Positions 25,619 to 62,351 of a DNA stretch of 64,000 nt are shown one piece after another. Both the position numbers and the translations under genes were made by a program. The notes below the pieces were generated by a model. The model saw nothing but the letters and a program-made list of their open reading frames with translations, did no database searches and was not told where the DNA came from. Positions within the stretch are counted from its first letter, which is position 1. Each line of letters begins with the position of its first letter. Origin of the DNA: Candidatus Eiseniibacteriota bacterium (GTDB lineage: Bacteria; Eisenbacteria; RBG-16-71-46; CAVPCR01); assembly GCA_963823555.1 (NCBI GenBank), contig CAWGMA010000002.1, positions 384,001 to 448,000 on the forward strand, written 5' to 3'.

Positions 25619-27541
25619 TCAGCGGAGCAGGGTCATCCGCCGGAGCTCGACCGAGTCGCGGGTGGTCAGGCGGTAGAAGTAGGTTCCGCTCGGGAGCTTG
25701 TCGCCGGCATCATTGAGCCCGTCCCAGGCGACCAGGTGCTCCCCGGCCGACTTGAACTCATGGACCAGCGTGCGCACGATCTTGCCGGAGGAGTTGAAGA
25801 CCACGAGCGTGACCGGTCCCGGCTTCTCGATCTTGTAGGAGATCTCGGTTGCCGGGTTGAACGGGTTGGGCACGTTCTGCGCGAGATCCCGCGGGGTCCT
25901 CTCCTTGGTGACCTGTCCGGTCGGGGCCGGCGGATACTCGGCGAGGGTGTTGCGCCATACCGTCACGTGATCGGCGATCGAGCTCGCGACAGCGAGGTCG
26001 ATCACACCGTCGCCGTCGAAATCGGCGGCTTCGACAGCCACCGGTCCCGCATCCACGGCGAACCGCGTGCCGAGGGAGAAGATTCCCGATCCTTCGTTCA
26101 GGAGCACGGTCACATCGTCGGAGTCGAGCCCGGGCACGGCAAGATCGAGATCCCCATCGCCATCCAGGTCGGCGAGCGCGGGGAGGAACGGACGATCCCC
26201 GGTCGCATAGGCGATTGGATTCCGGTAGGCGATCGCCTTGGCGGTGGTGTCTCGCTTGCTCCGGGGCGGACCGGATTCATTGCCGGCAGGGTCTGCGGCC
26301 CGCGGGCCGGCCAGGAACACGGAGACCTCGTTCGAGCCCTGATTGACGGTGATGAGGTCAGGGACTCGATCGCCGTTCAGGTCCGCGGCCATCACGACCT
26401 CGGGGCGGCTTCCGGTCTCGAGCGTGCCGGCCTGTTCGAAGCGCCCATCCCCCAGGTTGCGGAGGAGGATCACCTGATCGCCCTCCTCGTTGGCGGCTGC
26501 CAGGTCGAGATCCTGGTCGCCGTCGAGATCGGCCAGGGCGACGGACTCGATCCCGCGGGCGGCGCGCACTCGCCGTTCGCGCCCCAGGTTGCCACCGCTT
26601 TCGGCAGGTAGCACCGTGATGCGGTCGGTGCTCGAGAGATGGGCGATCAGCACCTCGTCGCGTCCATCCAGGTTGAGATCGCCGGTGATGGCCTGGACCG
26701 GGGTCCCCGTCTCGAGCTTGCGGGTCGCATCGAGGACGAAGCGGCCATCGCCCCGTCCGCGCAGGACGGCGAGATTGCCCGAGGTCTCTCCCGGGATGAC
26801 GAGATCGAGGCGCGAGTCGCGGTCGAGGTCGGCGAGAACGAAGCGGCTCGGATCTTCGATGTCGTCGAGCGCCATGGCAGGCAAGGGGCTGAAGGCCCCG
26901 TCACCCTGATTGATGAAGACGTGAAGATCCTCCACGCCGAGGACCGCGGTGACCACGAGATCGAGATCGCCGTCGGCGTCGAGGTCGGCGGCGGCGAGCA
27001 TGTTGGGGCTCTTGCTGACCTCGAACCCGGTCATGCGAGCGAATCGAGCGGGCCCGGGTGCTGCTGCCACGTGGAACGTGAGCAGTGCTCCGGCGAAGCC
27101 CTCCTGGCGCGCGATGGCGAGCCGCGCCATCTCGCCCGGGAGGAACGGGCGATCGGGGACCAGGGACAGGGTCCGCGACCTGGCCGCATAGCTGGCGCGG
27201 ACGCTGTGTGGCCCCGATTGCCGGCCATGGAGCTGGATGGCCGGGGGGGTCTTGGCCGACCAGACCTGATCCGCGTCGAGGACGATCTCGACTGCGGCGT
27301 CGGCGGGCACGCCCAGCGCCTGGGGAGCGGGGGTCCGGGCCTGGTTGGCGGCCAGGGCCGAATGGTCCGAGATGACTCCGGGCAGAGCGAGAAGCAGGCC
27401 CAGGGCCAGGGCGGCCGGCACCGCGAGGCGGGCAGTCGGCAGGAAGTGAGGCCTGGAGGCAGGTCGGAGGATGCGCCCGATCCGAAGATCCGAGCCGCGG
27501 GTCCCACGCCTCCTGGAGTGCGGGTTTTTGTTATGTAACAT
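25619..27541 (-). CDS. Secreted FG-GAP repeat beta-propeller protein with a C-terminal FlgD-Ig domain
   Basis: Seven DLDxDGxxD-like repeats; LAQNVPNPFNPAT...WDG...SGTYFYRL. Confidence 0.88.
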   Translation of the reverse strand: MLHNKNPHSRRRGTRGSDLRIGRILRPASRPHFLPTARLAVPAALALGLLLALPGVISDHSALAANQARTPAPQALGVPADAAVEIVLDADQVWSAKTPPAIQLHGRQSGPHSVRASYAARSRTLSLVPDRPFLPGEMARLAIARQEGFAGALLTFHVAAAPGPARFARMTGFEVSKSPNMLAAADLDADGDLDLVVTAVLGVEDLHVFINQGDGAFSPLPAMALDDIEDPSRFVLADLDRDSRLDLVIPGETSGNLAVLRGRGDGRFVLDATRKLETGTPVQAITGDLNLDGRDEVLIAHLSSTDRITVLPAESGGNLGRERRVRAARGIESVALADLDGDQDLDLAAANEEGDQVILLRNLGDGRFEQAGTLETGSRPEVVMAADLNGDRVPDLITVNQGSNEVSVFLAGPRAADPAGNESGPPRSKRDTTAKAIAYRNPIAYATGDRPFLPALADLDGDGDLDLAVPGLDSDDVTVLLNEGSGIFSLGTRFAVDAGPVAVEAADFDGDGVIDLAVASSIADHVTVWRNTLAEYPPAPTGQVTKERTPRDLAQNVPNPFNPATEISYKIEKPGPVTLVVFNSSGKIVRTLVHEFKSAGEHLVAWDGLNDAGDKLPSGTYFYRLTTRDSVELRRMTLLR

Positions 27542-29819: not shown

Positions 29820-31460
29820 TTACGGAGCGTAAACCACCCGTGTCGCGCCGCGGCCGTCGGGGGGATCGGTCGCGGCGCGGATCCAGTAGACACCGCGCGG
29901 GACGCGACGACCATGGTCGTCGCGCGCATCCCAGGTCGCGCCGCCGGGGCCGCCCCGAAGCGTGCGCACCCGGCGGCCGAGGGCATCGTAAATCGAGAGC
30001 TCGTTCGCGACCAGCCCGCCGGGGATGGTGATGTGCGCGCTCGCGGCAAAGGGATTCGGCGCGACGGTGAGCGCCACGACGGAGGGGGCGGGATCTCCGG
30101 CTGGGATGGCGCTCGGCCCGGACACCCGCCGGTAGACGCGGATCTGATCGACGGTGCCGAGGGCCGTGAGGATCTCCTCGAACCCGTCTGCGCCGTCATC
30201 GGCCAGGGCGAGCCCGCGGATGGGTCCGCCGAGCGCGGGGCGCGCGTAGCTCTCCTCCCAGCTGGCGAGATCCGGGTCATAGGACAGAACCCGCAGATCG
30301 CCGCCGAAGGAGCCGGCAGCAAGGCTCATCGTGCCCGGCACCGTGAGCGGGCGCGCATCGAGCGCGAGCACGTTTCCGGACCAGGCGGTCGCTGTCTCCA
30401 GGCGCAGCGCATAGGCATTCTCGCCCGTGTTCTCGAAGATCGCGACGAAGCTCGATGAACCGAAGGCAAGCTCCGGTCGCCCGTCGTCATCGAGGTCGGC
30501 GACGTGCGGGGCGGTGGGGAGCCCGATCACTGCCGACTGGAAGAGCGTATGGACCCAGGTCTGAGCCGCCGGGTCGTACTCGAGGCGGCGAATGTTGAGC
30601 GGGAATCCAGCCGAGCCGCCGTAGCCGAGGACGATCTCGGGGATGCCATCCTGATCGGTGTCGCCGAGCGCCGCCGAGAAGAGATAGGACGGGGTCGTGT
30701 ACGCGAAGACCCGTGTGTAGAGGTTCTCCCCGATGACGCCGGAGTGCTCCCAGATCGCGACCAGCCCGTCGGTCGGTGCCGAGCCGCCGCAGATGACGAT
30801 GACCTCCTCGCGGCCGTTCAGGTTGGTGTCGCCGATCAGGATCTTGCGCGGGCGTCGCGTCCCGATGGGATCGCTCTCGCGGATCGTGTCGTGAACGAAG
30901 GTGAACCCGCCGGCGGACTCCTCGAACAGCATCACCTTGCCGAACGTCGAGACCTCGGCAGCGAAGATCTCCCCCAGGCCGTCGCCGTCGGTGTCACCGA
31001 AGGCGAAATCGATGTAGGAGCTTGGCGGCGCCGGCGCGCCGGAGTTCCAGATCTCTTCGTAGCTGCCCTGGCCATCGGCGGCGAAGAGATGGATCTGGTT
31101 GGGAGTGAAGTGCGCCCCGGCGAAATCGAAGCGGCCGTCGCGGTCGGCGTCGCCGGCGCCGAGGCCGAGCACATTCGAGAGCGTGGTGCCCGAATCCCAG
31201 ACCGGAGCGAAATCGAGGTCGGAGAGGGCCTGGGCAGTCGCTCCGCCGCCGGATGGGGGAGCGGTCCCGAGGAGGCCATCGGCGTCGAGATCGGCCCGGG
31301 CCGCAGCTTCGCCCGCCGGCAGGAGCTCGTCGACCACGCCATCCCCGTTGATATCAAGGCCGATGAGCGGCTCACCAGCCCCGGGGGTGGCGAGGAGCAG
31401 GCCGAGGACGAGGGCCGGGAAGAGGAGGGCGAGGATGAGGAAACAGGGTTGCCGGTTCAC
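29820..31460 (-). CDS. Secreted FG-GAP-like repeat protein with a C-terminal FlgD-Ig domain
   Basis: Signal peptide; GDADRDGR, GDTDGDGL, GDTNLNGR, GDTDQDGI, ADLDDDGR repeats; VAPNPF...IYDALGRRVRTL...WD...GVYW. GTG start at 31460 inferred. Confidence 0.85.
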   Translation of the reverse strand: MNRQPCFLILALLFPALVLGLLLATPGAGEPLIGLDINGDGVVDELLPAGEAAARADLDADGLLGTAPPSGGGATAQALSDLDFAPVWDSGTTLSNVLGLGAGDADRDGRFDFAGAHFTPNQIHLFAADGQGSYEEIWNSGAPAPPSSYIDFAFGDTDGDGLGEIFAAEVSTFGKVMLFEESAGGFTFVHDTIRESDPIGTRRPRKILIGDTNLNGREEVIVICGGSAPTDGLVAIWEHSGVIGENLYTRVFAYTTPSYLFSAALGDTDQDGIPEIVLGYGGSAGFPLNIRRLEYDPAAQTWVHTLFQSAVIGLPTAPHVADLDDDGRPELAFGSSSFVAIFENTGENAYALRLETATAWSGNVLALDARPLTVPGTMSLAAGSFGGDLRVLSYDPDLASWEESYARPALGGPIRGLALADDGADGFEEILTALGTVDQIRVYRRVSGPSAIPAGDPAPSVVALTVAPNPFAASAHITIPGGLVANELSIYDALGRRVRTLRGGPGGATWDARDDHGRRVPRGVYWIRAATDPPDGRGATRVVYAP

Positions 31461-31600
31461 ATCGTCTATCGTAGCAGGTCCGGGTCGAGGCCAGGCCCAA
31501 CCCCGCCTCGACGGCCGGGCTCGCTGCTGAAACTCAAGCAACTTCATCCGTTACGTAGAATGAGCAAGCCCCCGGCCCGGATCTCGATCCCGATCACCCG

Positions 31601-34141
31601 ATGAGCCAGAGACGCCGCCTCCACCCCCAAGTCCCCTTCTCGGCGCATCTTGTCGCGCTGGCTCTGGCTGTTGCCGTGCCGGCGGTGGCCAATGATCCGC
31701 CCCGGCGCATGGAGGAGCTGACCCCTCCCGACCGGCATCTCTCCTTCTCGGCCAGCGGGATGTGGGGCTATGCCGATGCCACGGGCGAGTACGCGCTCAT
31801 CACCGATGGCGCTTCGCTCCAGGTCGTCGATGTCACGAATCCCGCCCACCCCGTGGTCGCGAGCCGCGTGCAGGGCGTCGGGCGGGATCTCAAGGAGGTC
31901 AAGACCTACCGGCACTACGCCTACTGCGTGAACCAGACCGGCCCCATCCAGATCGTGGATCTCTCGGATCCCTATCATGCCTACACGGCCGCCACGTATG
32001 CCTCGCCCCGGATCCCCGGCTCGCACAACATCTGGTGCAGCGATGACGGGTTCGCCTATGTCGCGCTCCAGGGAGCCGGCAACTCGGATCTCCGCATCCT
32101 CGATCTCGCCGATCCGCTACGCCCGGTCGAGCGCGGGAGCTGGCAGCATCCGCTGCAGAGCGGCTTCCGCTCCTGTCATGACGTCTATGTGAAGGACGAC
32201 GTCTGCTATGCCTCCTGGTTCGGCGGCGGGCTCGTCGTTCTCGATGTCACGAACAAGGACGCCCCGACACCGATCGTGGCCATCGGCTATCCTGATCAGC
32301 ACACGCACAACGCCTGGCCGACGACGGACGGTCGCTATGTCGCCACCACCGACGAGATGGTGGGCGGGCATCTGCGGATCTGGGACCTCGGGAGCGCGCT
32401 GCCCGTGCAAGTGGCGGAGTACGCGACCGAGACCACGGCCATCATCCACAACGTGCACCTGAAGGGCCCGCTGGCCTATATCGCCTACTACACGGCGGGC
32501 GTGCGTGTCGTCGACATGAGCGATGCGACCGCGCCGCGGGAGATCGGTGCCTACGACACGAGCAGCTTCTTCGGCAACGTGTACTCCGGCTGCTGGAGCG
32601 TGTACCCCTATTCACCCTCGGGTCTGCTCTATGCCTCGGATATCCAGGAAGGGTTGTTCGTCCTCCGCTTCCAGGATGAGCCGCAAGGCGTGGCCCGCGG
32701 GCTCGTCCGGGTGGCGGGCGCCGACCAGGCCGTGGTCGCCGGCGCCGAGGTGACCTTCCGCGAGGCCGGCGTGAGAACCGTCACCGACCGTTCGGGCTAC
32801 TTCGAAGCGCATCTCTATCCCGGCATGCACACCGTGCGGGTGACCCACCCCGACATGAAGACCCGCCGCTTCACCATGCACGTGGTCGATGACGAGGCGA
32901 CGACCGAACGCCTGGCCCTCGAGCCGGCGCCCGGCCCGGTACGCTTCGTCGAGCCCCCGGCGGTGAACCAGCTCAGCGATGGCCGGCTCGGGGTGAATGC
33001 TCGCCTGCGCTCGCCGGACACGCCGCTCGATGGGCTCTTCCTCCACTATCGCTCCGGAGCCGCGGGTGCCTTCCGGAGCCTGCCGCTCGCCCGCGTCGCC
33101 GAGAACGACGAGGACTATCGCGCCTTCATTCCGGCTCAGCTCGAGGGGACCCTCATCCAGTTCTTCGTCGAGGCCGCAGCCGGGGACACCATCGTCTTCG
33201 CGCCGGCCGATGCCCCGGTGACGCTCACGAGCTTCCGGGTCGGCGAGGTCGAGTGGGAGCCCGTTCTCGCCGCCGATTTCGAGGCGGGGGTGTTCGACTT
33301 CACGGTCGGTGCTGCCGAGGACTACGGGGAGCGCGGCCGCTTCGAGCGGGCGCGCCCGGTGGCCGGGCCGCTGGACTCGGTGCGATTCGGTGGCCGCCTG
33401 GCCCAGCCCACCGCCGATGCCACGCCCGGGGAAGGCCCGGGATACTGCTTCCTCACCGAGCTCGGTGCGACCGGGGCCGCCCCCGGGGATCACGAGCTCC
33501 AGGGTCGCACCACCCTCACCTCGCCGGCGGTGGATCTCGCCGGCGCCGAGGCGGCGCGGCTCCGGGTCGCGGTCTGGCTCGTCAACGACCTCGGCGGCAG
33601 CCTGTGGCAGGACCCGCTCCGGATCGAGGGCTCCGCCGATGGCGGCGCCACGTGGCGCCTGCTCGAATCGCTCCGCCTGCTCGCCCCCGGCTGGCAGGAG
33701 ATCACCGTCGATCTCGGGAGCCGGCTCGATCTCGCCGGCGCCATCCGCGTGCGCTTCGTGGTCGAGGACGCGGTGTCGCCGAGCTTCGTCGAGGCGGCCA
33801 TCGATGACGTGCGGATCGAGGTCACGAGCGGGCTCACCGCGCCGCAATCCGCCGCCGGGAACGGCGTGGTCCTCCTGCGCCAGAACGTGCCGAACCCGTT
33901 CAACCCGACGACCACCATCACTTACCAGCTGCTCGAGCCGCGCCCGGTGCGGCTCGTCGTCTATGATGCCGCCGGGCGCCTGGTCCGGGAGCTCATCGAC
34001 CGCATCGAGCCGGCCGGGGATCACGCGGTCCGCTGGGACGGGCGGGGCGAGCGCGGGTTCAGCGCCCCGAACGGAGTCTACTTCTATCGGCTCTCGGCGG
34101 GAGACTTCACGGATACGCGCAAGATGTTGCTGATGAAATGA
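31601..34141 (+). CDS. Choice-of-anchor B / LVIVD-repeat secreted protein with a C-terminal FlgD-Ig domain (paralogue 1)
   Basis: MWGY...EYAL, LQVVDVTNP, HNIW, CHD, HNAW, GCWSVYPY; QNVPNPFNPTT tail. Confidence 0.88.
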   Translation: MSQRRRLHPQVPFSAHLVALALAVAVPAVANDPPRRMEELTPPDRHLSFSASGMWGYADATGEYALITDGASLQVVDVTNPAHPVVASRVQGVGRDLKEVKTYRHYAYCVNQTGPIQIVDLSDPYHAYTAATYASPRIPGSHNIWCSDDGFAYVALQGAGNSDLRILDLADPLRPVERGSWQHPLQSGFRSCHDVYVKDDVCYASWFGGGLVVLDVTNKDAPTPIVAIGYPDQHTHNAWPTTDGRYVATTDEMVGGHLRIWDLGSALPVQVAEYATETTAIIHNVHLKGPLAYIAYYTAGVRVVDMSDATAPREIGAYDTSSFFGNVYSGCWSVYPYSPSGLLYASDIQEGLFVLRFQDEPQGVARGLVRVAGADQAVVAGAEVTFREAGVRTVTDRSGYFEAHLYPGMHTVRVTHPDMKTRRFTMHVVDDEATTERLALEPAPGPVRFVEPPAVNQLSDGRLGVNARLRSPDTPLDGLFLHYRSGAAGAFRSLPLARVAENDEDYRAFIPAQLEGTLIQFFVEAAAGDTIVFAPADAPVTLTSFRVGEVEWEPVLAADFEAGVFDFTVGAAEDYGERGRFERARPVAGPLDSVRFGGRLAQPTADATPGEGPGYCFLTELGATGAAPGDHELQGRTTLTSPAVDLAGAEAARLRVAVWLVNDLGGSLWQDPLRIEGSADGGATWRLLESLRLLAPGWQEITVDLGSRLDLAGAIRVRFVVEDAVSPSFVEAAIDDVRIEVTSGLTAPQSAAGNGVVLLRQNVPNPFNPTTTITYQLLEPRPVRLVVYDAAGRLVRELIDRIEPAGDHAVRWDGRGERGFSAPNGVYFYRLSAGDFTDTRKMLLMK

Positions 34142-34301: not shown

Positions 34302-36869
34302 GTGTTTGCTTCCATGACGGGGTACTGCTGCCATCCCGCCGCCCGCTGGCTGCTCTTGGCCGGGGTCTTTCTCGGCAGCCTTGCGCCCCGGGAGGGCGCG
34401 GCCGAGGATCCGCCGTACCGGATCGAGGAGGTCACGGCGGAGGGGAACCGCATCGCGACCTCCGGCAAGGACGTCTGGGGGTACGCCGACGCCAGCGGCG
34501 AGTACGCGCTCGTGACCGACGGGGTCTCGCTCCTGGTGGTCGATGTTACCGACCCGGTCACGCCGGTCGTGGCCACCCGCGTCCCGACCGTCGCCTACGA
34601 CATGAAGGACGTGAAGACCTACAAGCACTACGCCTACTGCGTCAACCAGGGCGGGCCGATCCAGATCGTCGATCTCTCCGATCCCTATCATGCCTACACG
34701 GCCGCCACCTTCTCCTCCCCGAACATTCCCGGCGCGCACAACATCTGGTGCTCGGAGGACGGCTTCGCCTATGTGGCCCTGATGGGGGCCGGCAACTCGG
34801 ATCTACGCATCCTCGACCTCGCCGATCCGTTGCACCCGGTCGAACGCGGTGGCTGGCAGCACATCGAGCAAGGCGGTCTCCTGGCCTGCCACGATGTCTA
34901 CGTGCGGAACGACACCTGCTATGCCTCGTGGTTCGGCGCCGGTCTCTACATCCTCGATGTCTCGGACAAGGATCACCCGCGCCGGCTGCAGAATATCCTC
35001 TACCCGGATCGGGCCACTCACAACGCCTGGCCTACCGTCGACAGTCAGCATGTCTTCACCACCGACGAGCGGAACGGCGGGCATCTCCTGGTGTGGGGGC
35101 TCGACGGCCGGTATGCCAGCCCGGTCGGTGAATACATGACCGAGGGGACGGCGATCATTCACAATGCTCACGTCAAGGGCGATCGCATCTACATCTCCTA
35201 CTACACGGCGGGGGTGCGGATCGCGGATATCACCGACCCCCGGAACCCGGTCGAGGTCGGGCGGTTCGATACCAGCCGCTACTCGGGCCCGCGCTTCGCC
35301 GGATGCTGGGGTATGTATCCCTACGCCCCATCCGGACTGATCTATGCCTCCGACATGGAGGAGGGGCTCTTCGTCCTGCGTTACCTCGATTCCGATGACG
35401 GCATCGCCCGCGGGTTCGTTCGCATCCACGGCGCGGAGAGCGCCCGGCTCGAGGGGGCCGAGATCCGCTTCGTCGAGTCGGGGGTGCGCGCGGTGAGCGA
35501 TCGCACCGGCTACTACCAGGCCGCGCTCTACCCCGGCACGCATACCGTCCGGGTGAGCCACCCCGCTTTCCACGAGGAGTCGTTCACGGTGGCGGTCGAG
35601 GCGCGGGGAGCGGTCGCGCAGGACGTGTTCCTCGATCCGCTGTCCGGGCCGCCGGCATTCGTGGCCGAGCCGGCGGCGCCGGTGGTGCTCGGGGACGGCC
35701 GGTTGCGCGTGGTGGCGACCGTGCGCGAGCACGGGTCGCCGATCTCAGACGTCATGCTGCGTTACCGTTCGGGCGGGGCCGGCGGGTTCCTCGGTGTGCC
35801 CATGGAGCGGGTCGAGGCCGGCGGTGAGGAGTTCGCGGGCGCCATCCCGACGCAGCTGCCGGGGACGCTCGTCCAGTACTTCATCGAGGTCGCGGACGAG
35901 GCGGGGGTTTCCGTGTTCTCACCGGCTGAAGCACCCGAGCTCCTCTCGAGCTACCGCGTCGGGGATCTCGATTGGAATGTGGTCTACGCCACCGACTTCG
36001 AGACCGATAGCGGCGGGTTCACCATCGGGTCAACCGCCGACCGTGGTGAGCGGGGTGTGTGGGAGCGCGCCATTCCCCATGCGGTGTATCCCGATTCGAT
36101 CCTCATCGATGGACGCTTGACGCAGCCGAACCTGGATGCGACTCCGGGCGATGGGCCGGGCTACTGCCTCCTGACCGAGCTCGGCCGCGAGGGAATCGAG
36201 TCGCAACATGAGCTGTATCCTCACGAGGTGGAGGGCCGGACGACACTGACCTCGCCCGTCATCGATCTCGGCGAGGCGGTCGCGGTCAGGCTCGAGTGTT
36301 CGGTCTGGTACGTCAACGATCTCGGCGGGAGCAGCTGGCAGGATCCAATCCTCGTCGAGGGCTCGACCGACGGCGGGCTGAGCTGGCGCGTCATCGCCGC
36401 GGAGCGAGTCGTGGCGCCCGGATGGCAGCGGATGGCGATCGATCTCGGTAGCCGGCTCCAGCTCGGGCGCGAGCTCATGATTCGCTTCGTCGCCACCGAT
36501 GAGGTGAGCCCGAGCCTGATCGAGGCGGCCGTCGACGATGTGCGGGTCATGACGACGCAGGGGTACGGCCCGGGAGTCGCCGGGGAGACGCCTCCGGTGC
36601 TCCTCAGGCAGAACCTGCCGAACCCCTTCAATCCCTCGACCACGATCACCTTCCAGCTCAAGGAGCCGCGCCAGGTCCAGCTCGAGGTCTATGATGTGGC
36701 CGGGCGCCTGGTCCGCCGTCTCGTGGATGGGAATCAGCCGGCGGGCGATCATGCCGCCGTATGGGATGGCCGCGACGTGCGCGGGTTCACCGCTCCCTCG
36801 GGCGTCTACTTCTATCGACTGTCGGCGCAGGACATCACTGATACGCGCAAGATGCTGCTGATCAAGTAG
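34302..36869 (+). CDS. Choice-of-anchor B / LVIVD-repeat secreted protein with a C-terminal FlgD-Ig domain (paralogue 2)
   Basis: Collinear with 31601..34141 over its whole length, with the same motifs. Start approximate. Confidence 0.88.
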   Translation: MFASMTGYCCHPAARWLLLAGVFLGSLAPREGAAEDPPYRIEEVTAEGNRIATSGKDVWGYADASGEYALVTDGVSLLVVDVTDPVTPVVATRVPTVAYDMKDVKTYKHYAYCVNQGGPIQIVDLSDPYHAYTAATFSSPNIPGAHNIWCSEDGFAYVALMGAGNSDLRILDLADPLHPVERGGWQHIEQGGLLACHDVYVRNDTCYASWFGAGLYILDVSDKDHPRRLQNILYPDRATHNAWPTVDSQHVFTTDERNGGHLLVWGLDGRYASPVGEYMTEGTAIIHNAHVKGDRIYISYYTAGVRIADITDPRNPVEVGRFDTSRYSGPRFAGCWGMYPYAPSGLIYASDMEEGLFVLRYLDSDDGIARGFVRIHGAESARLEGAEIRFVESGVRAVSDRTGYYQAALYPGTHTVRVSHPAFHEESFTVAVEARGAVAQDVFLDPLSGPPAFVAEPAAPVVLGDGRLRVVATVREHGSPISDVMLRYRSGGAGGFLGVPMERVEAGGEEFAGAIPTQLPGTLVQYFIEVADEAGVSVFSPAEAPELLSSYRVGDLDWNVVYATDFETDSGGFTIGSTADRGERGVWERAIPHAVYPDSILIDGRLTQPNLDATPGDGPGYCLLTELGREGIESQHELYPHEVEGRTTLTSPVIDLGEAVAVRLECSVWYVNDLGGSSWQDPILVEGSTDGGLSWRVIAAERVVAPGWQRMAIDLGSRLQLGRELMIRFVATDEVSPSLIEAAVDDVRVMTTQGYGPGVAGETPPVLLRQNLPNPFNPSTTITFQLKEPRQVQLEVYDVAGRLVRRLVDGNQPAGDHAAVWDGRDVRGFTAPSGVYFYRLSAQDITDTRKMLLIK

Positions 36870-42028: not shown

Positions 42029-43219
42029 CTAGTGCCACGAGTCCCCGGGCGCCGGGGCCATGTGTTCGGCCCCGGCCCGGGCTCCGCCTCCCCGGAACAT
42101 CGCCTCGATCGCCCCGAGCACGCGATCGACCTGCCCGCGGGGCATGCGGCCGTCCTCCGCCTGCGGCAGGCGCAAGAGGCGCCCGGCGGCGGCGCGCGCG
42201 ATGGCCTCGCCCAGCCGTTCCCCGGGACTCGTCCAGGGCAGGCGCGAGCTCGACGAGCGATCAGGAGCGGCCAGGAGCACGAGGAGCTGGATCGCCTCGC
42301 GCCGGTAGAGCGAGGCCGCGCTGCGGGCATCTCTGTAGGCAGGCGTATCGAAAGGATCGGCGTAACCGGGCGGAAACGGCTCCGGACAGCAGTCGCTGAG
42401 GAGCACGACGAGACTCTGCGCTCCCGGGTTCTTGAACCGTTCCAGCCGGGCCATGGCGAGCGTCTTCTTGAGCCCGTCGGCCAGGGGTGTCTCGCCCCGG
42501 AAGCGCAGCTGGGCCAGCTGGCGGGTGACGATGCGGTAGTTGTGCGTGGGGTGGTGCAGCACGGTGGCCTGGCGTCCCTGCAGGGAAACCAACCCCATGC
42601 GATCACGGTTGCGATGGAAGTGGCCTGCCAGCGAGCGCAGGAGCTCGGCGAATACTCGCAGGTGGCCGATGGTCGAGCGGCTCACGTCGACGAGGAGGAT
42701 CAGGGTCAAGCTCTCGCGTTCGGCCTTCGCCCAGCCGAGAAGGTCATCGCGATGCACGAAGGGCCGGTCCCGGCGCCAGCGGCGTCCGGATCGAAACGCC
42801 TCGAGCACTGTGGACAGGGAAGCCAGCAAGTTCTTCGCGGGCTGATAGGGAACGAGCCGGATGTTGCGGCCGGCGTAGGGATTCTCGATGGCCTGCCGCC
42901 GCCGGCTTCTCCGCGATCCGCGCGGGGTGCGGCGGAACCTCCGGAGCAAGCTACGGAAGAGTCGCCGGTAGCTGCTGCCCAGCATCGAGGGAGGCGCGGC
43001 GAAGATGCTGAACGGCGCCAGTTCTTCCTCGGGTGCGATCCACGCGACGTGTCGCCGGTCGGGCGTGGGACCATTGCGGGCGCCGCCCGGACCGACGATC
43101 CTGGGCAAACACTGCCGCAGGGCGCCGAGCCGCCGCAAAATACCGAGCCGCCGCAAGAACCGGCGGATCCCGCTCTCGCGCGGCGCGGGTCTGGGGCTGC
43201 CCGCGCACAGCGTCAGGCT
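42029..43219 (-). CDS. vWA (ChlD/BchD C-terminal-like) coding region, probably reached by a -1 frameshift from the upstream AAA+ frame
   Basis: MIDAS DVSRS, GETPLADGL, VLLSD. No ATG or RBS ahead of the domain; the frame is open back to the A7 run at 43219-43225. Confidence 0.8.
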   Translation of the reverse strand, partial: SLTLCAGSPRPAPRESGIRRFLRRLGILRRLGALRQCLPRIVGPGGARNGPTPDRRHVAWIAPEEELAPFSIFAAPPSMLGSSYRRLFRSLLRRFRRTPRGSRRSRRRQAIENPYAGRNIRLVPYQPAKNLLASLSTVLEAFRSGRRWRRDRPFVHRDDLLGWAKAERESLTLILLVDVSRSTIGHLRVFAELLRSLAGHFHRNRDRMGLVSLQGRQATVLHHPTHNYRIVTRQLAQLRFRGETPLADGLKKTLAMARLERFKNPGAQSLVVLLSDCCPEPFPPGYADPFDTPAYRDARSAASLYRREAIQLLVLLAAPDRSSSSRLPWTSPGERLGEAIARAAAGRLLRLPQAEDGRMPRGQVDRVLGAIEAMFRGGGARAGAEHMAPAPGDSWH

Positions 43220-44322
43220 TTTTTTGTCGCGCTGCCGCCGATCCCCGCCGTGGGACCGACCGTCGCTGTGCGGTCCCCCGGTTTCGGCCGGCCGGGCAGC
43301 CCGCTCAGCGCGCGTCCGAAGTGCTCGCGGATCTCGTCCCGGGTTGGCGGTTCGAGGAGACCGCCGTCACGCGTGCGATGGCCGAGGGCGGCCTCCGCCG
43401 CGATGGCCACGTCCCCAGCGGTGATCCGCGGCTGTCCGGCGAGCGCGGCCACCGCGCGCGCCGTCTTCATGATCACGATGTCCGGACGCTGTCCGTCCAC
43501 CTTCAGCTCGGCGCAGGCCGTCGAGATGCCCAGGAGGAGAGCATCCTCGATCTCGATCTCGGCGAGGCGCCGGCGCGCCTCGAGGATTTGCTGGCGCAGC
43601 GCCCCGGTCTCGTCGGCGAAGCGCTGCTGGAACGCCTCCGGCGCACGCTCGAACTCGAGGTTTCGCCGGACGATCTCCGCTCGCTGTGCCGGGTCACGGA
43701 TCGTCTCGACCTTCACGGAGAGGGGAAACCGGTCGAGAATCTGCGGGCGCAGGTCGCCTTCCTCCGGGTTCATCGTGCCGACCAGCACGAACTCGGCGGG
43801 ATGCGACACGGAGACGCCTTCCCGCTCGATCCGGCCCCAGTGGCTGGCCGCCGCGTCGAGGATATCGTCGACGAGGTGGTCGGGAAGCAGGTTGACCTCG
43901 TCGACGTAGAGGAGGTTGCGGTTGGCCTCGCCGAGGACCCCGGGCTGGACATGCCGCTTCCCCTGCTCGAGGAGCACCTCGATATCCAGGCTGCCGATCA
44001 GGCGGTCCTCGGTGCAGCTCAGCGGAAGGGTGATGATCCGCATTCGCTCGACGATGGTCGGGAGCTCCGCCCGCTCGCAGCAGAGGGAGCAGATCCGGTC
44101 CGCTTGCCCGGGATCGCAGTGGAATGGACAGCCGGTCACGGCGGTGTATTCGGGCAGGATCCCGGCGAGCGAGTGCACGATCATGCTCTTGCCGGTTCCC
44201 TTGGCGCCGCTCAAGAGCAGGCCGCCGATGCGCGGGTCCACGATATTGGCCAGATAGACGGTCTTGAGCAGGTCCTGGCCGACGACGGCGGCGAAGGGGT
44301 AGTGACGGCTCTTCTCGCGCAT
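43213..44322 (-). CDS. Mg/Co-chelatase subunit I-like AAA+ ATPase (N-terminal frame of a frameshifted chlD-like gene)
   Basis: YPFAAVVGQ, GAKGTGKS, TEDRLIGSLD, LYVDEVNLL, GTMNPEEGDLRPQILDRF; RBS GGAGGAGG; ends T-K-K-A-stop. Confidence 0.92.
   Translation of the reverse strand: MREKSRHYPFAAVVGQDLLKTVYLANIVDPRIGGLLLSGAKGTGKSMIVHSLAGILPEYTAVTGCPFHCDPGQADRICSLCCERAELPTIVERMRIITLPLSCTEDRLIGSLDIEVLLEQGKRHVQPGVLGEANRNLLYVDEVNLLPDHLVDDILDAAASHWGRIEREGVSVSHPAEFVLVGTMNPEEGDLRPQILDRFPLSVKVETIRDPAQRAEIVRRNLEFERAPEAFQQRFADETGALRQQILEARRRLAEIEIEDALLLGISTACAELKVDGQRPDIVIMKTARAVAALAGQPRITAGDVAIAAEAALGHRTRDGGLLEPPTRDEIREHFGRALSGLPGRPKPGDRTATVGPTAGIGGSATKKA
43219..43225 (-). promoter_or_regulatory. Candidate -1 frameshift slippery heptamer A_AAA_AAA
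   Basis: ACA AAA AAA GCC TGA in frame 0; -1 slippage gives AAA AGC CTG ACG..., which continues into the vWA frame. GC-rich hairpins lie 7-12 nt downstream. Confidence 0.75.
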
Positions 44323-44368
44323 GGGCCCTCCTCCGACGACCTCGATACCGGCAGCCTCGAGGCCTAGT

Positions 44369-45417
44369 CTAGAGCGTCGCCATCTCCACGTTGTCGAAGT
44401 TGCGCCGGTAGAAGGACATGTACTGCACCTTGCGCTCGAGGGCCTGGATGACGGCATGCGTGAAGTTGACGCCCGTGAACTTCTGCGCGCTGCCCAGGCC
44501 GCCCGGGCTGAAGACGTTGATCTCCATCAGCTTGTCGCCGACGATGTCCAGGCCGACGAGGAACATGCCGTCCTGCACGAGCTTCGGCCGGACGATCTCG
44601 GCGATGCGCAGCGCCGTGGCGTCGATCTCGGCCTCGCGGAGCTTGCCCGCCGGCGTGGATGTTCGAGCGCATGTCGCCGCCCGTGCGCACGCGGCGGAAC
44701 GCGGCGTACTTGCCCTTGTAGCGCAGCGGCTGGCCGTTCATCAGAAACAGACGCATGTCGCCCTCGGCGGCGGCGGGCAGGTACTCCTGGGCGATGACGT
44801 AGCCGTCGCGGCTGACGGCATCGATCATCTGATTCAGGTTCGGCACGTCTTCCGGCCGCACCAGGAAGACGCTCTGGCCGCCCGAGCCCTGCAGCGGCTT
44901 GAGCACGATGGTGCCGCCCTGCTCCTTGGCGAACGCCTTGATCTCGTCGCGGTCGCGCGTGATCAGCGTCTTCGGCCGCACCTCTTCCGGGAAGAGCTGG
45001 AAGTACATCTTGCTCATCGCCCGCGCCAGGCCGTTCGGATCGTTCAGCACGATCACGCCGTGGCGCATGGCCACGCGGCCGAACTGCGTGCCCGCGGTCG
45101 ACGGCCCAGGGCCTGTAGATGACGTCCGTGGCCGGGTCGTTCCGCAGCAGCAGGACGTCCAGCTCGTCGACGGTGATGCGCTCGACGATCGCGTTCTTGC
45201 CTTGCAGGTCCCGCAGGTAGCCCTCCGAGGTCGTGTACTTCTTCTTGGGCACGCTGCGCGCCCGGGCGCGGATGGTGTCGTCCGGATCGTAGGCCAGATC
45301 GCCCACGCCCATGACCCAGACTTCGTGGCCCAGGTTGACCGCCGCCACGCCCAGCCGACTGGTCGTGTAGCCGGTCTCTTCGGTCTTGATGTCGTTGACG
45401 ACGAATCCGATCTTCAT
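44369..45417 (-). CDS. Glutathione synthetase (GshB)-like ATP-grasp ligase, two apparent frameshifts (~45100, ~44650)
   Basis: MKIGFVVND, LDVLLLRNDP, VLKPLQGSGGQSVF, IAQEYLP, GDMR, RSNIHAGG, VGLDIVGDKLMEINVFSPGG, spread over three frames. Confidence 0.82.
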
Positions 45418-47351
45418 CGGTGCCTCCCATCGATAAGGTCGAGTGACCGTCACTCCCTTGCGCAGCTCCTGCAGCCTCGACAGCGCTTCGGGCATCTCCA
45501 TGTAGCGCGGCGCGAGCGGCGGCTCGCGCAGCACCTTGCGCCACTGGAGCTCGCGGACGATCGGAACGTGATCGGCGGCGATCTTGCCGACCAACAGCGG
45601 CTCGAGCTCACCATCGGTGCCCAGGTACTCCAGCATCTGGCACAAGCCCGCGCAAGTAGACCGCATCCTTGGTCAGCCCCCCACCGCGGTAGATCCGCAT
45701 CGCGATGGTGAAGGCGGTGCGGCGATCGAAGCCATACAGGCCGTCCAGCTCGCGGAACGTGTCCACGAAGGTGGCGCCGTCGATCATGTGCCGCGTCGCA
45801 AGGACGCGCGCGGCCAGCAGGCGCAACCGCGGCCGGCTCAGGCCGCCCACCAGGTACTCGGCCAGCACGGCGAGGCCTTCCTGAAAGGCCTCGTATCCGG
45901 CCAGGCCCGAATAGAGCTGTCGAAACGGCTGGGCCCGTCCGTTGTAGTAGGTCAGGACGTGCGTTCCGACCTCGTGCTGCAGCAGCGGCTTCCACTCGCG
46001 ACACCGGAATCCGCGTGTGCTTGCCGATCAACAGCGAGCCGCGCGAGACCATCAGGCCGCTGGCGATGTCCTCGCGCACCTGCACGCCGGCATCGACCTC
46101 CGGCCAGCGCTCCCGGTAGTACGCGATCTCCTCCTCGGCCCGCTCGGCGAACGCCTCCGCATCGAGGTGCCCGCTCCTGGAATCCTCGCGCGTGCGCGGC
46201 GGCAGGCGGTACAGGAGCTGATCGGCCAGACGCTTCAGATCGTCTTCCACGCCGCCGTAACAGCTGCAGGCTGCCGTGCACGAAACGCGGCGTGTTGACG
46301 TCGATCAGCATGGTGATCTGCCGATCGAGCTCGTCCTGCTTCTGCCGCAGCAGCAGGGACAACGCCGGATCCTCGACCCGCTCGATCGGCGTGCTGTACA
46401 GGCGGCGCTTGAGAACGACGGGATCCGCGGGAAGCGGCCGGTACTGAAACACCGGCGCCACTTCGAACCGACTTCTCTCGAACTCGCGCCAGGCCTGCTC
46501 GGCGTTGGCCGGCGTCACCTGAAGCAGGAAGTCGAAGCTGTCCGATACCTCCGCCAGTTGCCGGTCGACCTCCCACACGGCCTTGACCATCGCTCGCCGA
46601 CCCAGCACCTGGTAGTGCTTGGGCCGGTGCGTCGTCTGCGTGCGCGTGAACTCGAAGAAGGTCTGCCGCAGGGCCTGGCTCAGGCCGCGCCGCAGCTCGC
46701 GCAGGACCAACGGGTAGAGCTCGCCTCCTGGCGCCCCGGTACACGGGGCGCACCTCCAGGCCCAGCATCGGCAGCCCAGCTCGACGCGCCGCATCGGCCG
46801 GCAGGATCGGCGAGTACTGCCGCGGACAGCATCGCGTCGTTCGGCGGACCTGGGTCTCCGGCCGGGTGCCTGCGCAGCGTGATCCGCGACAGCGCATCAT
46901 CGAACGTGCCGACGAGCGGCACCGACATCGCTCGTCCTTCGGGGCGACGATCTCGGAAGCTCGGCTTCAGGATGTCGTCGGCGATCGTCGGGCATCGCCT
47001 TGCCGCCGCTTCGCCCGACCAGAGCTCCAGAATCAGAAAGGCGCCGAACTGTTCCGCCGATGCGTTCGGCGATCGCCCTGCACCAGCGCCGTCAGGCCGG
47101 CTTGCAGGCTGCCGGCGCCGGAGGCAATCAGGTAGGCGGCCTCACTGGTCACCAGCCGCTCGGTGCCCGCGTCGTCGCCGCGGACCGGCCGGCGATACAC
47201 GCACAGGAAGGGCAGCTGGCGGTCGATGTGCACGCGGCCCCAGACCGGCAAGTTGCGCCGGACCCGCTTGTTCTCCTCGAGGCGCTCGCACACCGTGCGG
47301 ATGAACCGCTCGGTGATCGCCTGCGGTCTGGACGTCTCTGCCGGTCTTCAT
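45414..47351 (-). CDS. QEGLA-motif / DUF1704 (MATCAP-like) metallocarboxypeptidase, many apparent frameshifts
   Basis: Reassembled by hand: GRVHIDRQLPFLCVYR, LLQHEVGTHVLTYYNG (HExxxH), FQEGLAVLAEY, RIYRGGGLTKDAVYLRGL. ATGA overlaps with both neighbours. Confidence 0.8.
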
Positions 47352-59561: not shown

Positions 59562-61262
59562 ATGAGGGCTCAGCGAAACATCTCGGTTCTGAGCATCGTG
59601 GTGTCGCTCGGGCTCCCGATGATGCCGGCCACCACCGCGGCGGATGCCGCCGCAGACGCCGCCGGCGAGCAGGAGTTCCTGCGCGAACGCGTCGAGGCGC
59701 TCGGCAGCGGGCGGCTCGATCGCGTCGAGGGAGCGACGATCGCCGCCGGCTCCCTCCTCGAGGAGTTCTACGCGCGGTGTGGGTTTCGCCCGGCATGGAC
59801 GGCCCCCGGGAAGCCCGATCAGCTCCTCGCCGCCATTCGCGCCATCGCCGATGACGGGCTCGACCCGGAGGACTATCACCTCTCGGTGCTCGAGACGGTC
59901 AAGGCCCGGATCCCGGCGGCGCCGGTGCCGGATCTTGCGCTCCGCGTCGATTACGATCTCCTCCTGACCGATGCCCTGGTGCGCCTCGGCTATCACGTGC
60001 TCTTCGGCAAGGTGGACTACGCCGAGTACGACGCCGACTGGAACTACAGTCGCGAGATCCACGACCTCGATCCGGCGGTGGCCATCCAGCAGGTGATCGA
60101 CGAGCCGGACATCGCCGCCGCCATCGAGCGCGAGAAGCCGTCCCACGCCGCGTACGCCGCGCTCCGGGCGCGTTACGTCCGCTATCGCGCGATCCGCGAT
60201 GCCGGGGGCTGGGGCCGGGTGGAGGAGGGGCCCACCCTGCGCCCCGGCGATGTCGATATCCGGGTGAACGCCGTGCGGAGCCGGCTGGTCACGACGGGCG
60301 ACCTGCCGGTGGCGGCAGGGTTCACACCCGGCGATGTGTACGACGATGCGCTCGCCGACGCCGTCCGCGCCTTTCAACGCCGCCATGGTCTCGATGCCGA
60401 CGCCGCCGTGGGGCCGCGCACGGTCGAGGAGATGAACGTCCCGGTGGAGGTTCGCCTCGATAAGATCCGCCTCAACCTCGAGCGCGAGCGATGGCTCCTG
60501 CACGATATCGGCGGTGAGTTCGTGATCGTCAACATTGCCGGCTTCGAGCTCTACTATGTCGAGGACGGCAAGGTGGTGTGGAAGACGCGCGTCCAGGTCG
60601 GGAAGCCTTACCGGAGCACGCCGGTCTTCCGCTCGGAGATCACCTATCTCGTCTTCAATCCCACGTGGACGGTGCCACCGGGGATTCTCGCCAACGACAT
60701 CCTGCCGGAGCAGAAGAACGATCCGGCGACCCTGTCGCGGAAGGGGCTCAAGATCCTCGACTCGAGCGGGCGGGAGATCGATCCCGCCACCATCGACTGG
60801 TCCCGGTATTCGGGCCGCGGCTTTCCCTACACCCTGCGGCAGGACCCTGGGCCGAAGAATGCTCTCGGCCGCGTCAAGTTCATGTTCCCCAACGAGCACG
60901 CCGTCTATCTCCACGACACGCCGAGCAAGAGCCTCTTCGAGAAGGAAGATCGCGCCTTCAGTTCGGGATGCATCCGGGTCGAGGAGCCGCTCCATCTCGC
61001 CGAGCTCCTCCTGCGTCACGAGCCGGGCTGGAGACGGAGCGCCATCGATTCGGCGATCGCCACCGGCGAGCTCCGATCGGTGACGCTTGCCACACCGGTC
61101 CCGATACTCCTGTCCTACTGGACGGCCTGGGTCGAGGAGGGTGCTCTCCAGTTCCGCCGCGATCTCTATGACCGGGACGCCAAGGTCCTGGCCGGTCTCA
61201 ACCAGCCCTTTCGCCTGAGAGCGCGCCATGAAACCAGACCTCATGCGGATCAGGCTCACTGA
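59562..61262 (+). CDS. L,D-transpeptidase (YcbB/LdtD-like), second copy
   Basis: Signal peptide; FQRRHGLDADAAVG, VNIAGF, NPTWTVP, NALGRVKFMFPN, YLHDTP, FSSGCIR. Confidence 0.92.
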   Translation: MRAQRNISVLSIVVSLGLPMMPATTAADAAADAAGEQEFLRERVEALGSGRLDRVEGATIAAGSLLEEFYARCGFRPAWTAPGKPDQLLAAIRAIADDGLDPEDYHLSVLETVKARIPAAPVPDLALRVDYDLLLTDALVRLGYHVLFGKVDYAEYDADWNYSREIHDLDPAVAIQQVIDEPDIAAAIEREKPSHAAYAALRARYVRYRAIRDAGGWGRVEEGPTLRPGDVDIRVNAVRSRLVTTGDLPVAAGFTPGDVYDDALADAVRAFQRRHGLDADAAVGPRTVEEMNVPVEVRLDKIRLNLERERWLLHDIGGEFVIVNIAGFELYYVEDGKVVWKTRVQVGKPYRSTPVFRSEITYLVFNPTWTVPPGILANDILPEQKNDPATLSRKGLKILDSSGREIDPATIDWSRYSGRGFPYTLRQDPGPKNALGRVKFMFPNEHAVYLHDTPSKSLFEKEDRAFSSGCIRVEEPLHLAELLLRHEPGWRRSAIDSAIATGELRSVTLATPVPILLSYWTAWVEEGALQFRRDLYDRDAKVLAGLNQPFRLRARHETRPHADQAH

Positions 61263-61488
61263 TCTGCGCCGGGAGCGCATGCTCCGCTCCCTCAAGAAGT
61301 TCTATGTCGAGAAGCTCGACCAGGAGATCGGCGATCTCGCGGCGGATCAGATCCTCGACTTCTTCGTCAAGGAGCTCGGCCCCGCGGTCTACAACCAGGC
61401 CATCCAGGACGCGCGGGCCTTCATCCAGGGCAAGCTCGATGACCTGGAAGGCGACTTCTACGAACCCGACGAACCCTACTCGCGCTAG
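61243..61488 (+). CDS. DUF2164 family protein
   Basis: EIGDLAADQILDFFVKELGPAVYNQAIQDA. Alternative start at 61228. Confidence 0.82.
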   Translation: MRIRLTDLRRERMLRSLKKFYVEKLDQEIGDLAADQILDFFVKELGPAVYNQAIQDARAFIQGKLDDLEGDFYEPDEPYSR

Positions 61489-61595
61489 GGGGGCGCGACC
61501 GCTGTCACAAACTCCTCTCCTCGCCGGCTCCCTCGGTGCGCTGGTCAGCCCGCCAGTGACGCCCGAGTGCTGCTCGGGAAGGAAAGGAGAGGAGC

Positions 61596-62351
61596 ATGCG
61601 ATACTCTGTTCACCTCACGGTCATGGCCCTGTTCTCCGCGGTGCTGGTCGGTGGCTGCTCCGAGGATCCGGCCGCGCCCGAAGCTGGCGCCCGCGCGGTC
61701 GTCCGGGAGGCCGGGCCCGAGCCGGACGACATCTCGGCCGAGGTCCTCGGTGCTCGCGGCATTCCCTTTGCCGAGACCCACGTCTTCTTCGAGTTCAACT
61801 CCACCGACAATGATCTCGGCTTCCAGCTGATGCTGGACGGCGACGAATGGCGTCGGGTGAACGTCTTCGATCCCGATGACAGCCGCATCCTCGACTTCAA
61901 GGCCAAAGGTCCCCTCCAGGAGCTCGGCCTGACCGAGCTGCGTTTCGAGAGCGCCGAGCCATCCCCCGGGGAGGTGCTGGCGCTCTTCGCCCCCGGGGAG
62001 TATTCCTTTGTCGGCGTCTCGGTCGATGGGGAACGGCTCGAGGGATCCGGGATGCTCTCGCATGATTTGCCGCCGGCGCCCGTGTTCGTCAGCCCGCCCG
62101 CCGGTGGGACCGTGGCGGCGGAGGACCTCGTCATCCGCTGGATCCCGAGCGGGGGTCTCGCGGGGTACGAGGTGATTCTCGTCAACGAGGACACGGGCGC
62201 CTCGATGACGGTAGAGCTCGATGGCGGAGCGACCTCGCTCGAGGTGCCGGCGGAGTTCGCCGCCGAGGACACGGAGTACAAGGCCGAGATCCTCTCCGTG
62301 GCCGTGAACGGCAACAAGACCATCACCGAGATCACGTTCTTCACCGAGTGA
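61596..62351 (+). CDS. Hypothetical lipoprotein with a C-terminal Fn3/Ig-like domain
   Basis: GAGGAG RBS, LVGGC lipobox, FFEFNSTDNDLGFQ, ELRFESAEP. Confidence 0.72.
   Translation: MRYSVHLTVMALFSAVLVGGCSEDPAAPEAGARAVVREAGPEPDDISAEVLGARGIPFAETHVFFEFNSTDNDLGFQLMLDGDEWRRVNVFDPDDSRILDFKAKGPLQELGLTELRFESAEPSPGEVLALFAPGEYSFVGVSVDGERLEGSGMLSHDLPPAPVFVSPPAGGTVAAEDLVIRWIPSGGLAGYEVILVNEDTGASMTVELDGGATSLEVPAEFAAEDTEYKAEILSVAVNGNKTITEITFFTE

Follow-up and report, generated by a model that had tools for sequence, protein, structure and literature searches.

A chlI/chlD-like gene of an Eisenbacteria genome with a conserved A-run, a probable -1 ribosomal frameshift and a predicted downstream pseudoknot

A chlI/chlD-like gene divided at an A-run

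When a reading frame ends just behind a run of seven adenines (A7) and a second frame, shifted by one base, is open from that run onward, are we dealing with two genes, one damaged gene, or one gene that is decoded in two ways? The question is raised by a chlI/chlD-like locus on the minus strand of a 64,000-nt stretch of DNA (the window, to which all positions refer; G+C content 67.7%) from an Eisenbacteria genome, here called G000 (4.6 Mb, 4-contig assembly, 92.5% complete). An initial annotation, made from the sequence alone, had proposed that a programmed frameshift yields both a small and a medium chelatase subunit from this locus. In our analysis it is quite probable that the locus is a single gene of the fs-chlD type, with a -1 slip on A_AAA_AAA, a predicted pseudoknot and two products, although the chelatase function is doubtful. 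The coordinates are collected in Table 1.

The 0 frame opens at an ATG preceded by a Shine-Dalgarno sequence and terminates GCG ACA AAA AAA GCC TGA. Its A7 is phased A_AAA_AAA, a heptamer of the form X_XXY_YYZ, and a single codon separates the run from the stop. No other A or T run of at least six bases occurs in the window, and the whole genome has 20 runs of at least seven. The -1 frame continues uninterrupted from A7 to its end and encodes 398 amino acids, which would give a predicted AAA+-linker-vWA fusion of 764 aa. Its earliest ATG lies 227 nt beyond the stop and lacks Shine-Dalgarno pairing, and ahead of that ATG the list of open reading frames (ORFs) offers only a TTG at 43156 as a start. 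The initial annotation had thus described the 369-aa frame and its ending, the rarity and phase of the run, and an open vWA frame (with the motif DVSRS) that has no convincing start of its own, and each of these was found as claimed. A scan of the window for promoters and terminators gave nothing above chance, and an Rfam scan gave no match close to the gathering score.

Conservation of the junction

In order to compare junctions, loci were collected with an alignment of the vWA half (29 proteins): 79 from genomes (best 80 of 93 matches), 80 from metagenomes (best 80 of 105), three extra loci and the window, 163 in total. Eleven of these, mostly at contig ends, had no detectable upstream AAA half and were dropped before counting. 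The remaining 152 loci with both halves (137 with offset -1, 12 with offset +1, two fused and one other) were collapsed to 111 distinct junctions, including the window and L011, a member of another fs-chlD branch. Among the distinct junctions, 99 have the vWA half at offset -1, ten at +1, one is fused in frame, and L011 carries a second indel. An A-run of 6-10 lies at all 111 junctions, and a stop follows within 25 nt of it in 97 of the 99 -1 loci, so the run and the stop singled out by the initial annotation are retained among the orthologues. Its proposal of two products, an I-like protein of 369 aa and a D-like protein of about 764 aa, is strongly supported at the sequence level by the 99 junctions offset -1.

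The loci span several phyla and G+C fractions of 0.26-0.72; record titles name Eisenbacteria, Zixibacteria, Edwardsbacteria, WOR-3, CSSED10-310, Bdellovibrionales and Cloacimonadota, and many of the named records carry contig names given by short-read assemblers. A7 is identical in the three closest relatives of the window. One genome of the same genus (G001) retains A7, GCC TGA and the -1-frame peptide KKSLTL.AGS, with a much longer upstream linker. Since the A-run recurs at all 111 distinct junctions and the same offset at 99 of them, the comparison of sequences indicates that the -1 offset at A7 is not an assembly error. Within the phylum of the window the gene is patchy, with a strong match in five of 206 genomes and eight further matches at E ~1e-4 to 1e-3. 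Contigs from four of 20 public runs all contained short exact pieces of the gene; among the 32 pieces listed (482 further) none spans A7, and among the 12 indel rows listed (30 further) none falls at A7.

The ten +1 junctions have A-runs of 6-10, and several differ by one base near the run from close -1 kin (e.g., L119 compared with L051). They may be errors, alleles or sites of polymerase slippage, and some +1 forms may be real, since L027 and L101 have a common +1 layout. The offset also differs inside one Zixibacteria-rich clade with A8-A10 runs, where L027, L101 and L097 are +1 and L020, L021 and L026 are -1. In L003, the locus of genome G058, the junction near 2511 has A6 in the form A_AAA_AAG, the vWA half at +1, no nearby stop and, past the run, an ATG in the vWA frame; this layout may have arisen by loss of one base in the assembly. 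L011 (G001:C3, near 59955-61900) is a second fs-chlD of G001, with A9 (GAA AAA AAA ACT TAA), an acidic linker and more indels downstream.

When the vWA alignment was used to look for longer, fused relatives, no such protein was retrieved; this is weak evidence, and the search missed the fused protein of L156. This protein belongs to a Cloacimonadota locus (L065 1-5400; L156 967-3418; L157) with two divergently oriented paralogues that are ~80% identical in DNA, of which one is frameshifted (A8, -1) and the other is an in-frame fusion (>800 aa). The long form can therefore be hard-wired.

Phase of the slippery site

A-runs of at least eight hold A_AAA_AAN in every phase, and therefore only short runs are informative about where slippage takes place. 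An in-frame A_AAA_AAR was found at 26 of the 27 -1 loci with A6-A7 (98/99 over all -1 loci), and where the run is too short for A_AAA_AAA the next base is G in all but one case. Because slippage of tRNA-Lys needs phase and polymerase slippage does not, this pattern supports a slip on the ribosome; the in-phase A_AAA_AAR of the short runs fits tRNA-Lys slippage, and it is very likely, judging from the sequences, that the shift takes place on the ribosome. A_AAA_AAR has been named as the conserved site of this gene family (PMC5009743), and a magnesium chelatase cluster with -1 frameshifts has been reported (Antonov 2013, PMC3711429). In the same work, shifting of 10% was measured in E. coli for an A_AAA_AAA cassette from the family, and cassettes with A11, A9 and A7 gave 63, 40 and 10%, respectively.

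A predicted pseudoknot downstream of the site

The initial annotation had noted two alternative hairpins behind the heptamer, and both stems are present at the positions given. They are, however, mutually compatible and not alternatives: the loop of the hairpin GCTGT (43211-43207)/GCAGC (43200-43196) supplies the 5' strand of the second hairpin, and together they make up one predicted H-type pseudoknot. Its geometry comprises a spacer of 7 nt, a stem 1 of 4 bp (43211-43208 with 43199-43196), a loop 1 of 1 nt, a stem 2 of 7 bp (43206-43200 with 43189-43183), a loop 2 of 0 nt and a loop 3 of 6 nt. By scripted search, this architecture recurs with a spacer of 6-7 nt in 4/4 A7 junctions of the window's clade (support 99 in a quick tree). 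Stem 1 is GCUC/GAGC in G001 and CGCUG/CGGCG and GGCUG/CAGCC in the other two relatives, stem 2 is the same in all, and loop 3 varies in length, being longer in two relatives with the frame kept. The downstream pairing potential pointed out by the initial annotation is thus kept in the three closest relatives (n=4 with the window), as far as sequence comparison can tell.

Dinucleotide shuffles scored as well as the four junctions in 5, 8, 5 and 3 of 500 cases, and random 70-mers from the genome in 8/2000; the A7 of this gene has the highest pseudoknot score of all 20 A7+ runs in G000. In the four-row alignment, two pairs of stem 1 have changes in both bases and a third pair in one base only; slid control registers showed none. 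Stem 1 starts 6-7 nt past the site, within the 5-9 nt quoted for the distance between slippery site and structure (PMC8211752), whereas stem 2 alone would start at 12 nt. Overall, we lean towards the pseudoknot, not a simple hairpin, as the stimulator. A strict pseudoknot grammar gave weak or no matches in most other clades.

Domains and putative function of the two products

The 0-frame protein matches Pfam Mg_chelatase and AAA_lid_2, and its comparison with the ChlI structure 8osf gave E 7e-90. Walker A (GAKGTGKS) and Walker B (LLYVDE) are both intact. ChlI is the best match for the AAA+ domain, and the affinity to MoxR is weak (bpMoxR, E 9e-5, below cut-off). The top profile of both halves is TIGR02442 ('putative cobaltochelatase'), of which the 0-frame half covers positions 1-313 of 641 and the -1-frame half positions 403-613, the latter with 80 bits; the 0-frame half also matches TIGR02030, and both of its TIGRFAM matches are below cut-off. 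In the -1-frame protein, VWA_2 matches residues 175-278, and the vWA domain of BchD (2x31) matches with E 1.5e-6. A structure model of this half folds as a vWA domain (pTM 0.63), with low confidence for the N-terminal ~100 residues, and a fold search with the model retrieved generic vWA domains only, so that the function was not narrowed. The linker is arginine-rich, with 34 R+K compared with 7 D+E within the first 150 residues of the -1 frame. Downstream of DVSRS, the core of the metal-ion-dependent adhesion site (MIDAS), the T of GETP and the D of LSD were found; in the 29-protein alignment D255 is invariant, and D157 and S159/S161 are nearly so.

A query with the AAA+ half identified one copy of the gene in G000. 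L194 in the same genome is a further locus with the Mg_chelatase Pfam domain, which this query did not match. The large chelatase subunit CobN/ChlH (PF02514) had no match in G000 and was found in only one (G217) of 79 other carrier genomes, compared with 5/14 controls; the gene of this single carrier (L186, G217:C49 11804-15463) is a full member of the CobN/ChlH family. Likewise, the cobalamin families PF03186 and PF02654 (CobD/CbiB and cobalamin synthase) had no match in G000. The designation 'chelatase subunits' in the initial annotation therefore overstates the function. Given that carriers almost never yield a large subunit, the motor likely has a non-chelatase client, and by analogy with MoxR-type AAA+/vWA pairs there is a good chance that it remodels or metal-loads such a client.

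Proposed mechanism and points against it

In the reading that we favour, ribosomes would either terminate with the 369-aa product or move back by one base on A_AAA_AAA, where the predicted pseudoknot 7 nt downstream would pause them. Slipped ribosomes would produce the 764-aa AAA+-linker-vWA protein. The short product would form an ATPase ring, for which the minority long product would be the vWA/MIDAS adaptor, in analogy to CobS-CobT and NorQ-NorD, and the shift rate would set the ratio of ring to adaptor. The stoichiometry of ChlI to ChlD is itself unsettled (bioRxiv 10.64898/2026.03.06.710059).

A number of observations speak against this reading. The assembly is error-prone right beside the gene, where neighbouring gshB-like and MATCAP-like frames (44364-46570, minus strand) carry five frame-breaking single-base insertions relative to two intact orthologous loci. 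The ten +1 junctions among the 111 include that of G058, which is sister to the pseudoknot clade, and this A6 locus also scores weakly for a pseudoknot (47 of 500 shuffles). The kin are not independent: the 27 short-run loci amount to about three lineages, and their phase is a pattern, not a statistic. Most long-run loci lack a predicted stimulator, and a transcriptional slip is possible there. As for the pseudoknot, the grammar and energy score were our own and were written once the motif had been seen. The covariation score of stem 1 was reached by 83/500 shuffles on four related sequences only; of stem 2, only 4/7 pairs are countable in the alignment, and those never vary; and nested folding gives the stem-2 hairpin with z = -0.39, no better than shuffles. 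Finally, the carriers are incomplete metagenome-assembled genomes, so that CobN/ChlH counts as 'not found' in 78/79, and clustering of the neighbourhoods of 110 loci gave neighbours that are clade-specific or generic, with none shared across clades and no client indicated.

Alternative explanations

The alternative that survives best keeps the same ribosomal -1 shift and takes a simple stem-2 hairpin as the stimulator, with stem 1 incidental. The minimum-energy nested fold does include stem 2, in extended form, other short-run clades use hairpins, and the stem-1 covariation is not significant on the four sequences. We nevertheless consider a simple hairpin rather unlikely, as stem 1 is retained 4/4 with two double-sided changes, stem 2 alone falls outside the quoted distance from the site, and the nested fold does not stand out from its shuffles.

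A true cobalt or magnesium chelatase, with small and medium subunits made here and a large subunit that the assemblies lack or that has diverged beyond detection, would explain the best profile of both halves, the intact ATPase motifs and MIDAS, and the complete CobN/ChlH of G217. It is improbable in view of the distribution of PF02514 among carriers and controls, the two other cobalamin families not found in G000, and the mere 80 bits of the vWA half on TIGR02442.

Transcriptional slippage, in which the polymerase would insert an A in the run and the longer mRNA would be translated normally into the fusion, is plausible for the long-run relatives: 56/99 of the -1 loci have A9-A10, few of these have a stable downstream fold (see below), polymerase slippage could also serve the ten +1 junctions, and runs longer than 7 have been linked to transcriptional realignment (PMC3711429). 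At the window locus, with only A7, this explanation is quite improbable, as the short runs are in phase with a single exception and most of them have predicted 3' or 5' stimulators, which act on ribosomes.

Two separate genes, a chlI-like gene and a translationally coupled vWA gene with its own start, would make the A-run incidental. The TTG at 43156 opens an ORF of 375 aa, databases call such proteins, and an ATG or GTG lies near the stop in 15/99 loci. Shine-Dalgarno pairing accompanies such a codon in only 7/99, however, and in neither the window nor its three closest relatives; together with the universal A-run and a -1-frame peptide conserved in G001 from the run onward, this renders two genes very improbable. 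Least probable of all is a homopolymer deletion in the assembly of a true A8 gene with one continuous chlD ORF, which the 4-contig assembly with five single-base errors or lesions within 2.3 kb upstream might suggest, but which is contradicted by 99/111 junctions offset -1 with one fused, by the A7 of the three closest relatives, and by polarity, since the upstream breaks are insertions and A8 to A7 would be a deletion, a difference already drawn in the initial annotation and confirmed against the two intact orthologous loci.

Frameshift signals across the family

The tallies of signals cover the 99 loci offset -1. A downstream fold with z <= -2 was observed in 18/27 loci with A6-A7, 8/16 with A8 and 4/56 with A9-A10. 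Upstream pairing of -6 kcal/mol or better with the anti-Shine-Dalgarno motif follows the same order (23/27, 13/16 and 10/56, respectively). The window itself has no upstream Shine-Dalgarno-like stimulator (duplex -5.7, no motif). Most short-run loci come from Cloacimonadota, in which GGAGG precedes the heptamer and a long hairpin lies downstream of it (L061-L092 and related metagenome loci), a dnaX-like combination. With 15-16 nt between GGAGG and heptamer, the distance is a little larger than the 9-14 nt given for such upstream elements (PMC5009743), and Gly-Gly codons may account for part of the GGAGG signal.

The clade with A7 and the pseudoknot is nested among A9-A10 loci, and the pseudoknot therefore looks derived within the branch, an order taken from a quick, unrooted tree. 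One scenario, to which we give about an even chance, is that the need to shift is fixed and the signal has been swapped. Most lineages would have A9-A10 without a stimulator, Cloacimonadota A6-A8 with GGAGG and a hairpin, and the Eisenbacteria clade A7 with a newly gained pseudoknot; the shift would set the ring-to-adaptor ratio of a motor with a non-chelatase client.

Features of the locus and its surroundings

Table 1. Features of the fs-chlD-like locus in the window.
Feature	Position	Strand	Basis or remark
Shine-Dalgarno GGAGGAGGG	44326..44334	-	Sequence; upstream of ATG 44322
0-frame ORF, ChlI-like AAA+ ATPase, 369 aa, short product	43213..44322	-	Pfam, TIGRFAM, structure match
Walker A GAKGTGKS	44185..44208	-	
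Slippery heptamer A_AAA_AAA (Lys-Lys codons), predicted -1 shift site	43219..43225	-	Sequence and conserved A-run
0-frame stop TGA	43213..43215	-	Sequence; 3 nt past A7
-1 frame, 398 codons, linker and vWA; C-terminal part of predicted fusion	42029..43225	-	Sequence and profiles
Stem 1, 5' strand GCUG	43208..43211	-	Predicted; 7 nt past heptamer
Loop 1, single U	43207	-	Predicted
Stem 2, 5' strand GCGCGGG	43200..43206	-	Predicted; invariant in 4/4 A7 junctions of clade
Stem 1, 3' strand CAGC	43196..43199	-	Predicted; compensatory GCUC/GAGC in G001
Stem 2, 3' strand CCCGCGC	43183..43189	-	Predicted; after 6-nt loop
MIDAS DxSxS (DVSRS)	42674..42688	-	Sequence; vWA alignment

Frames up to about 48900 likewise look fragmented, as the result of assembly errors or in a decaying region. 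The gshB-like query had no match in G001, and the flanks of the gene in G001 do not match those in the window. Elsewhere in the window, the plus strand encodes a tandem pair of paralogous secreted proteins (31601-34141 and 34302-36869), each of ~850 aa. The N-terminal repeats of the two are similar, and the sorting-type tail at their C-terminus resembles the tails of 25619-27541 and 29820-31547.

Comparison with known systems

A survey of fs-chlD genes lists 169 of them, with -1 shifts commoner than +1, and gives a size rule of 500-800 aa for the long and 250-500 aa for the short product (Kuznetsov 2022, PMC9227772). It also describes a 'stage 1' without the large subunit, in Spirochaeta thermophila and Brevefilum fermentans, with the function stated as unknown. 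Our locus shares with the published genes (PMC3711429, PMC9227772) the ChlI-like ORF, the poly-A site, the nearby stop, a vWA ORF mostly at -1, a downstream structure (here only predicted) and two products, here predicted at 764 and 369 aa and thus within the size rule; as in stage 1, no CobN/ChlH was found in its genome. By its sequence, the locus accords with the definition of fs-chlD and fits the stage without a large subunit. It differs in belonging to a diverged vWA branch with a basic linker, present in Eisenbacteria, Zixibacteria, Edwardsbacteria, WOR-3, CSSED10-310 and Cloacimonadota, and in its predicted H-type pseudoknot, where the published texts give RNAfold-predicted structures or stem-loops. 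Our literature search returned no report of a pseudoknot for fs-chlD, though Antonov 2020 (PMID 32211852) or figure S4 of PMC9227772 could show one.

Recoding is thus already published for the chlD family, and the additions made here are the predicted pseudoknot and the pattern of run length versus stimulator in an orphan branch. They extend known recoding to candidate phyla and correct the annotation of loci that are split into two genes, the vWA one with a false start. Run length versus type of stimulator forms a natural series within the family, in which ribosomal and transcriptional slippage can be compared, and the question of Kuznetsov 2022 (PMC9227772) about the role of ChlI/ChlD without a large subunit extends to ~80 more genomes. 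If it is real, the pseudoknot would provide a natural -1 stimulator of compact form in a gene of a bacterial chromosome. A bacterial chromosomal gene in which a pseudoknot drives -1 shifting is already known, E. coli copA (PMC6182138), which likewise combines a -1 shift, a downstream pseudoknot and two products with a common N-terminus; in copA the shift yields the short product (PMC5009743), whereas the long one is predicted here.

The likely working model is provided by MoxR-type pairs such as NorQ-NorD (PMC13036017) and by the CobS-CobT motor (bioRxiv 10.64898/2026.07.21.739949), in which an AAA+ ring works with a vWA adaptor that passes force to a client. The predicted system would share this ring-plus-adaptor arrangement, but its AAA+ domain is of the ChlI clade, not MoxR, and recoding would produce an adaptor that carries an AAA+ copy of its own.

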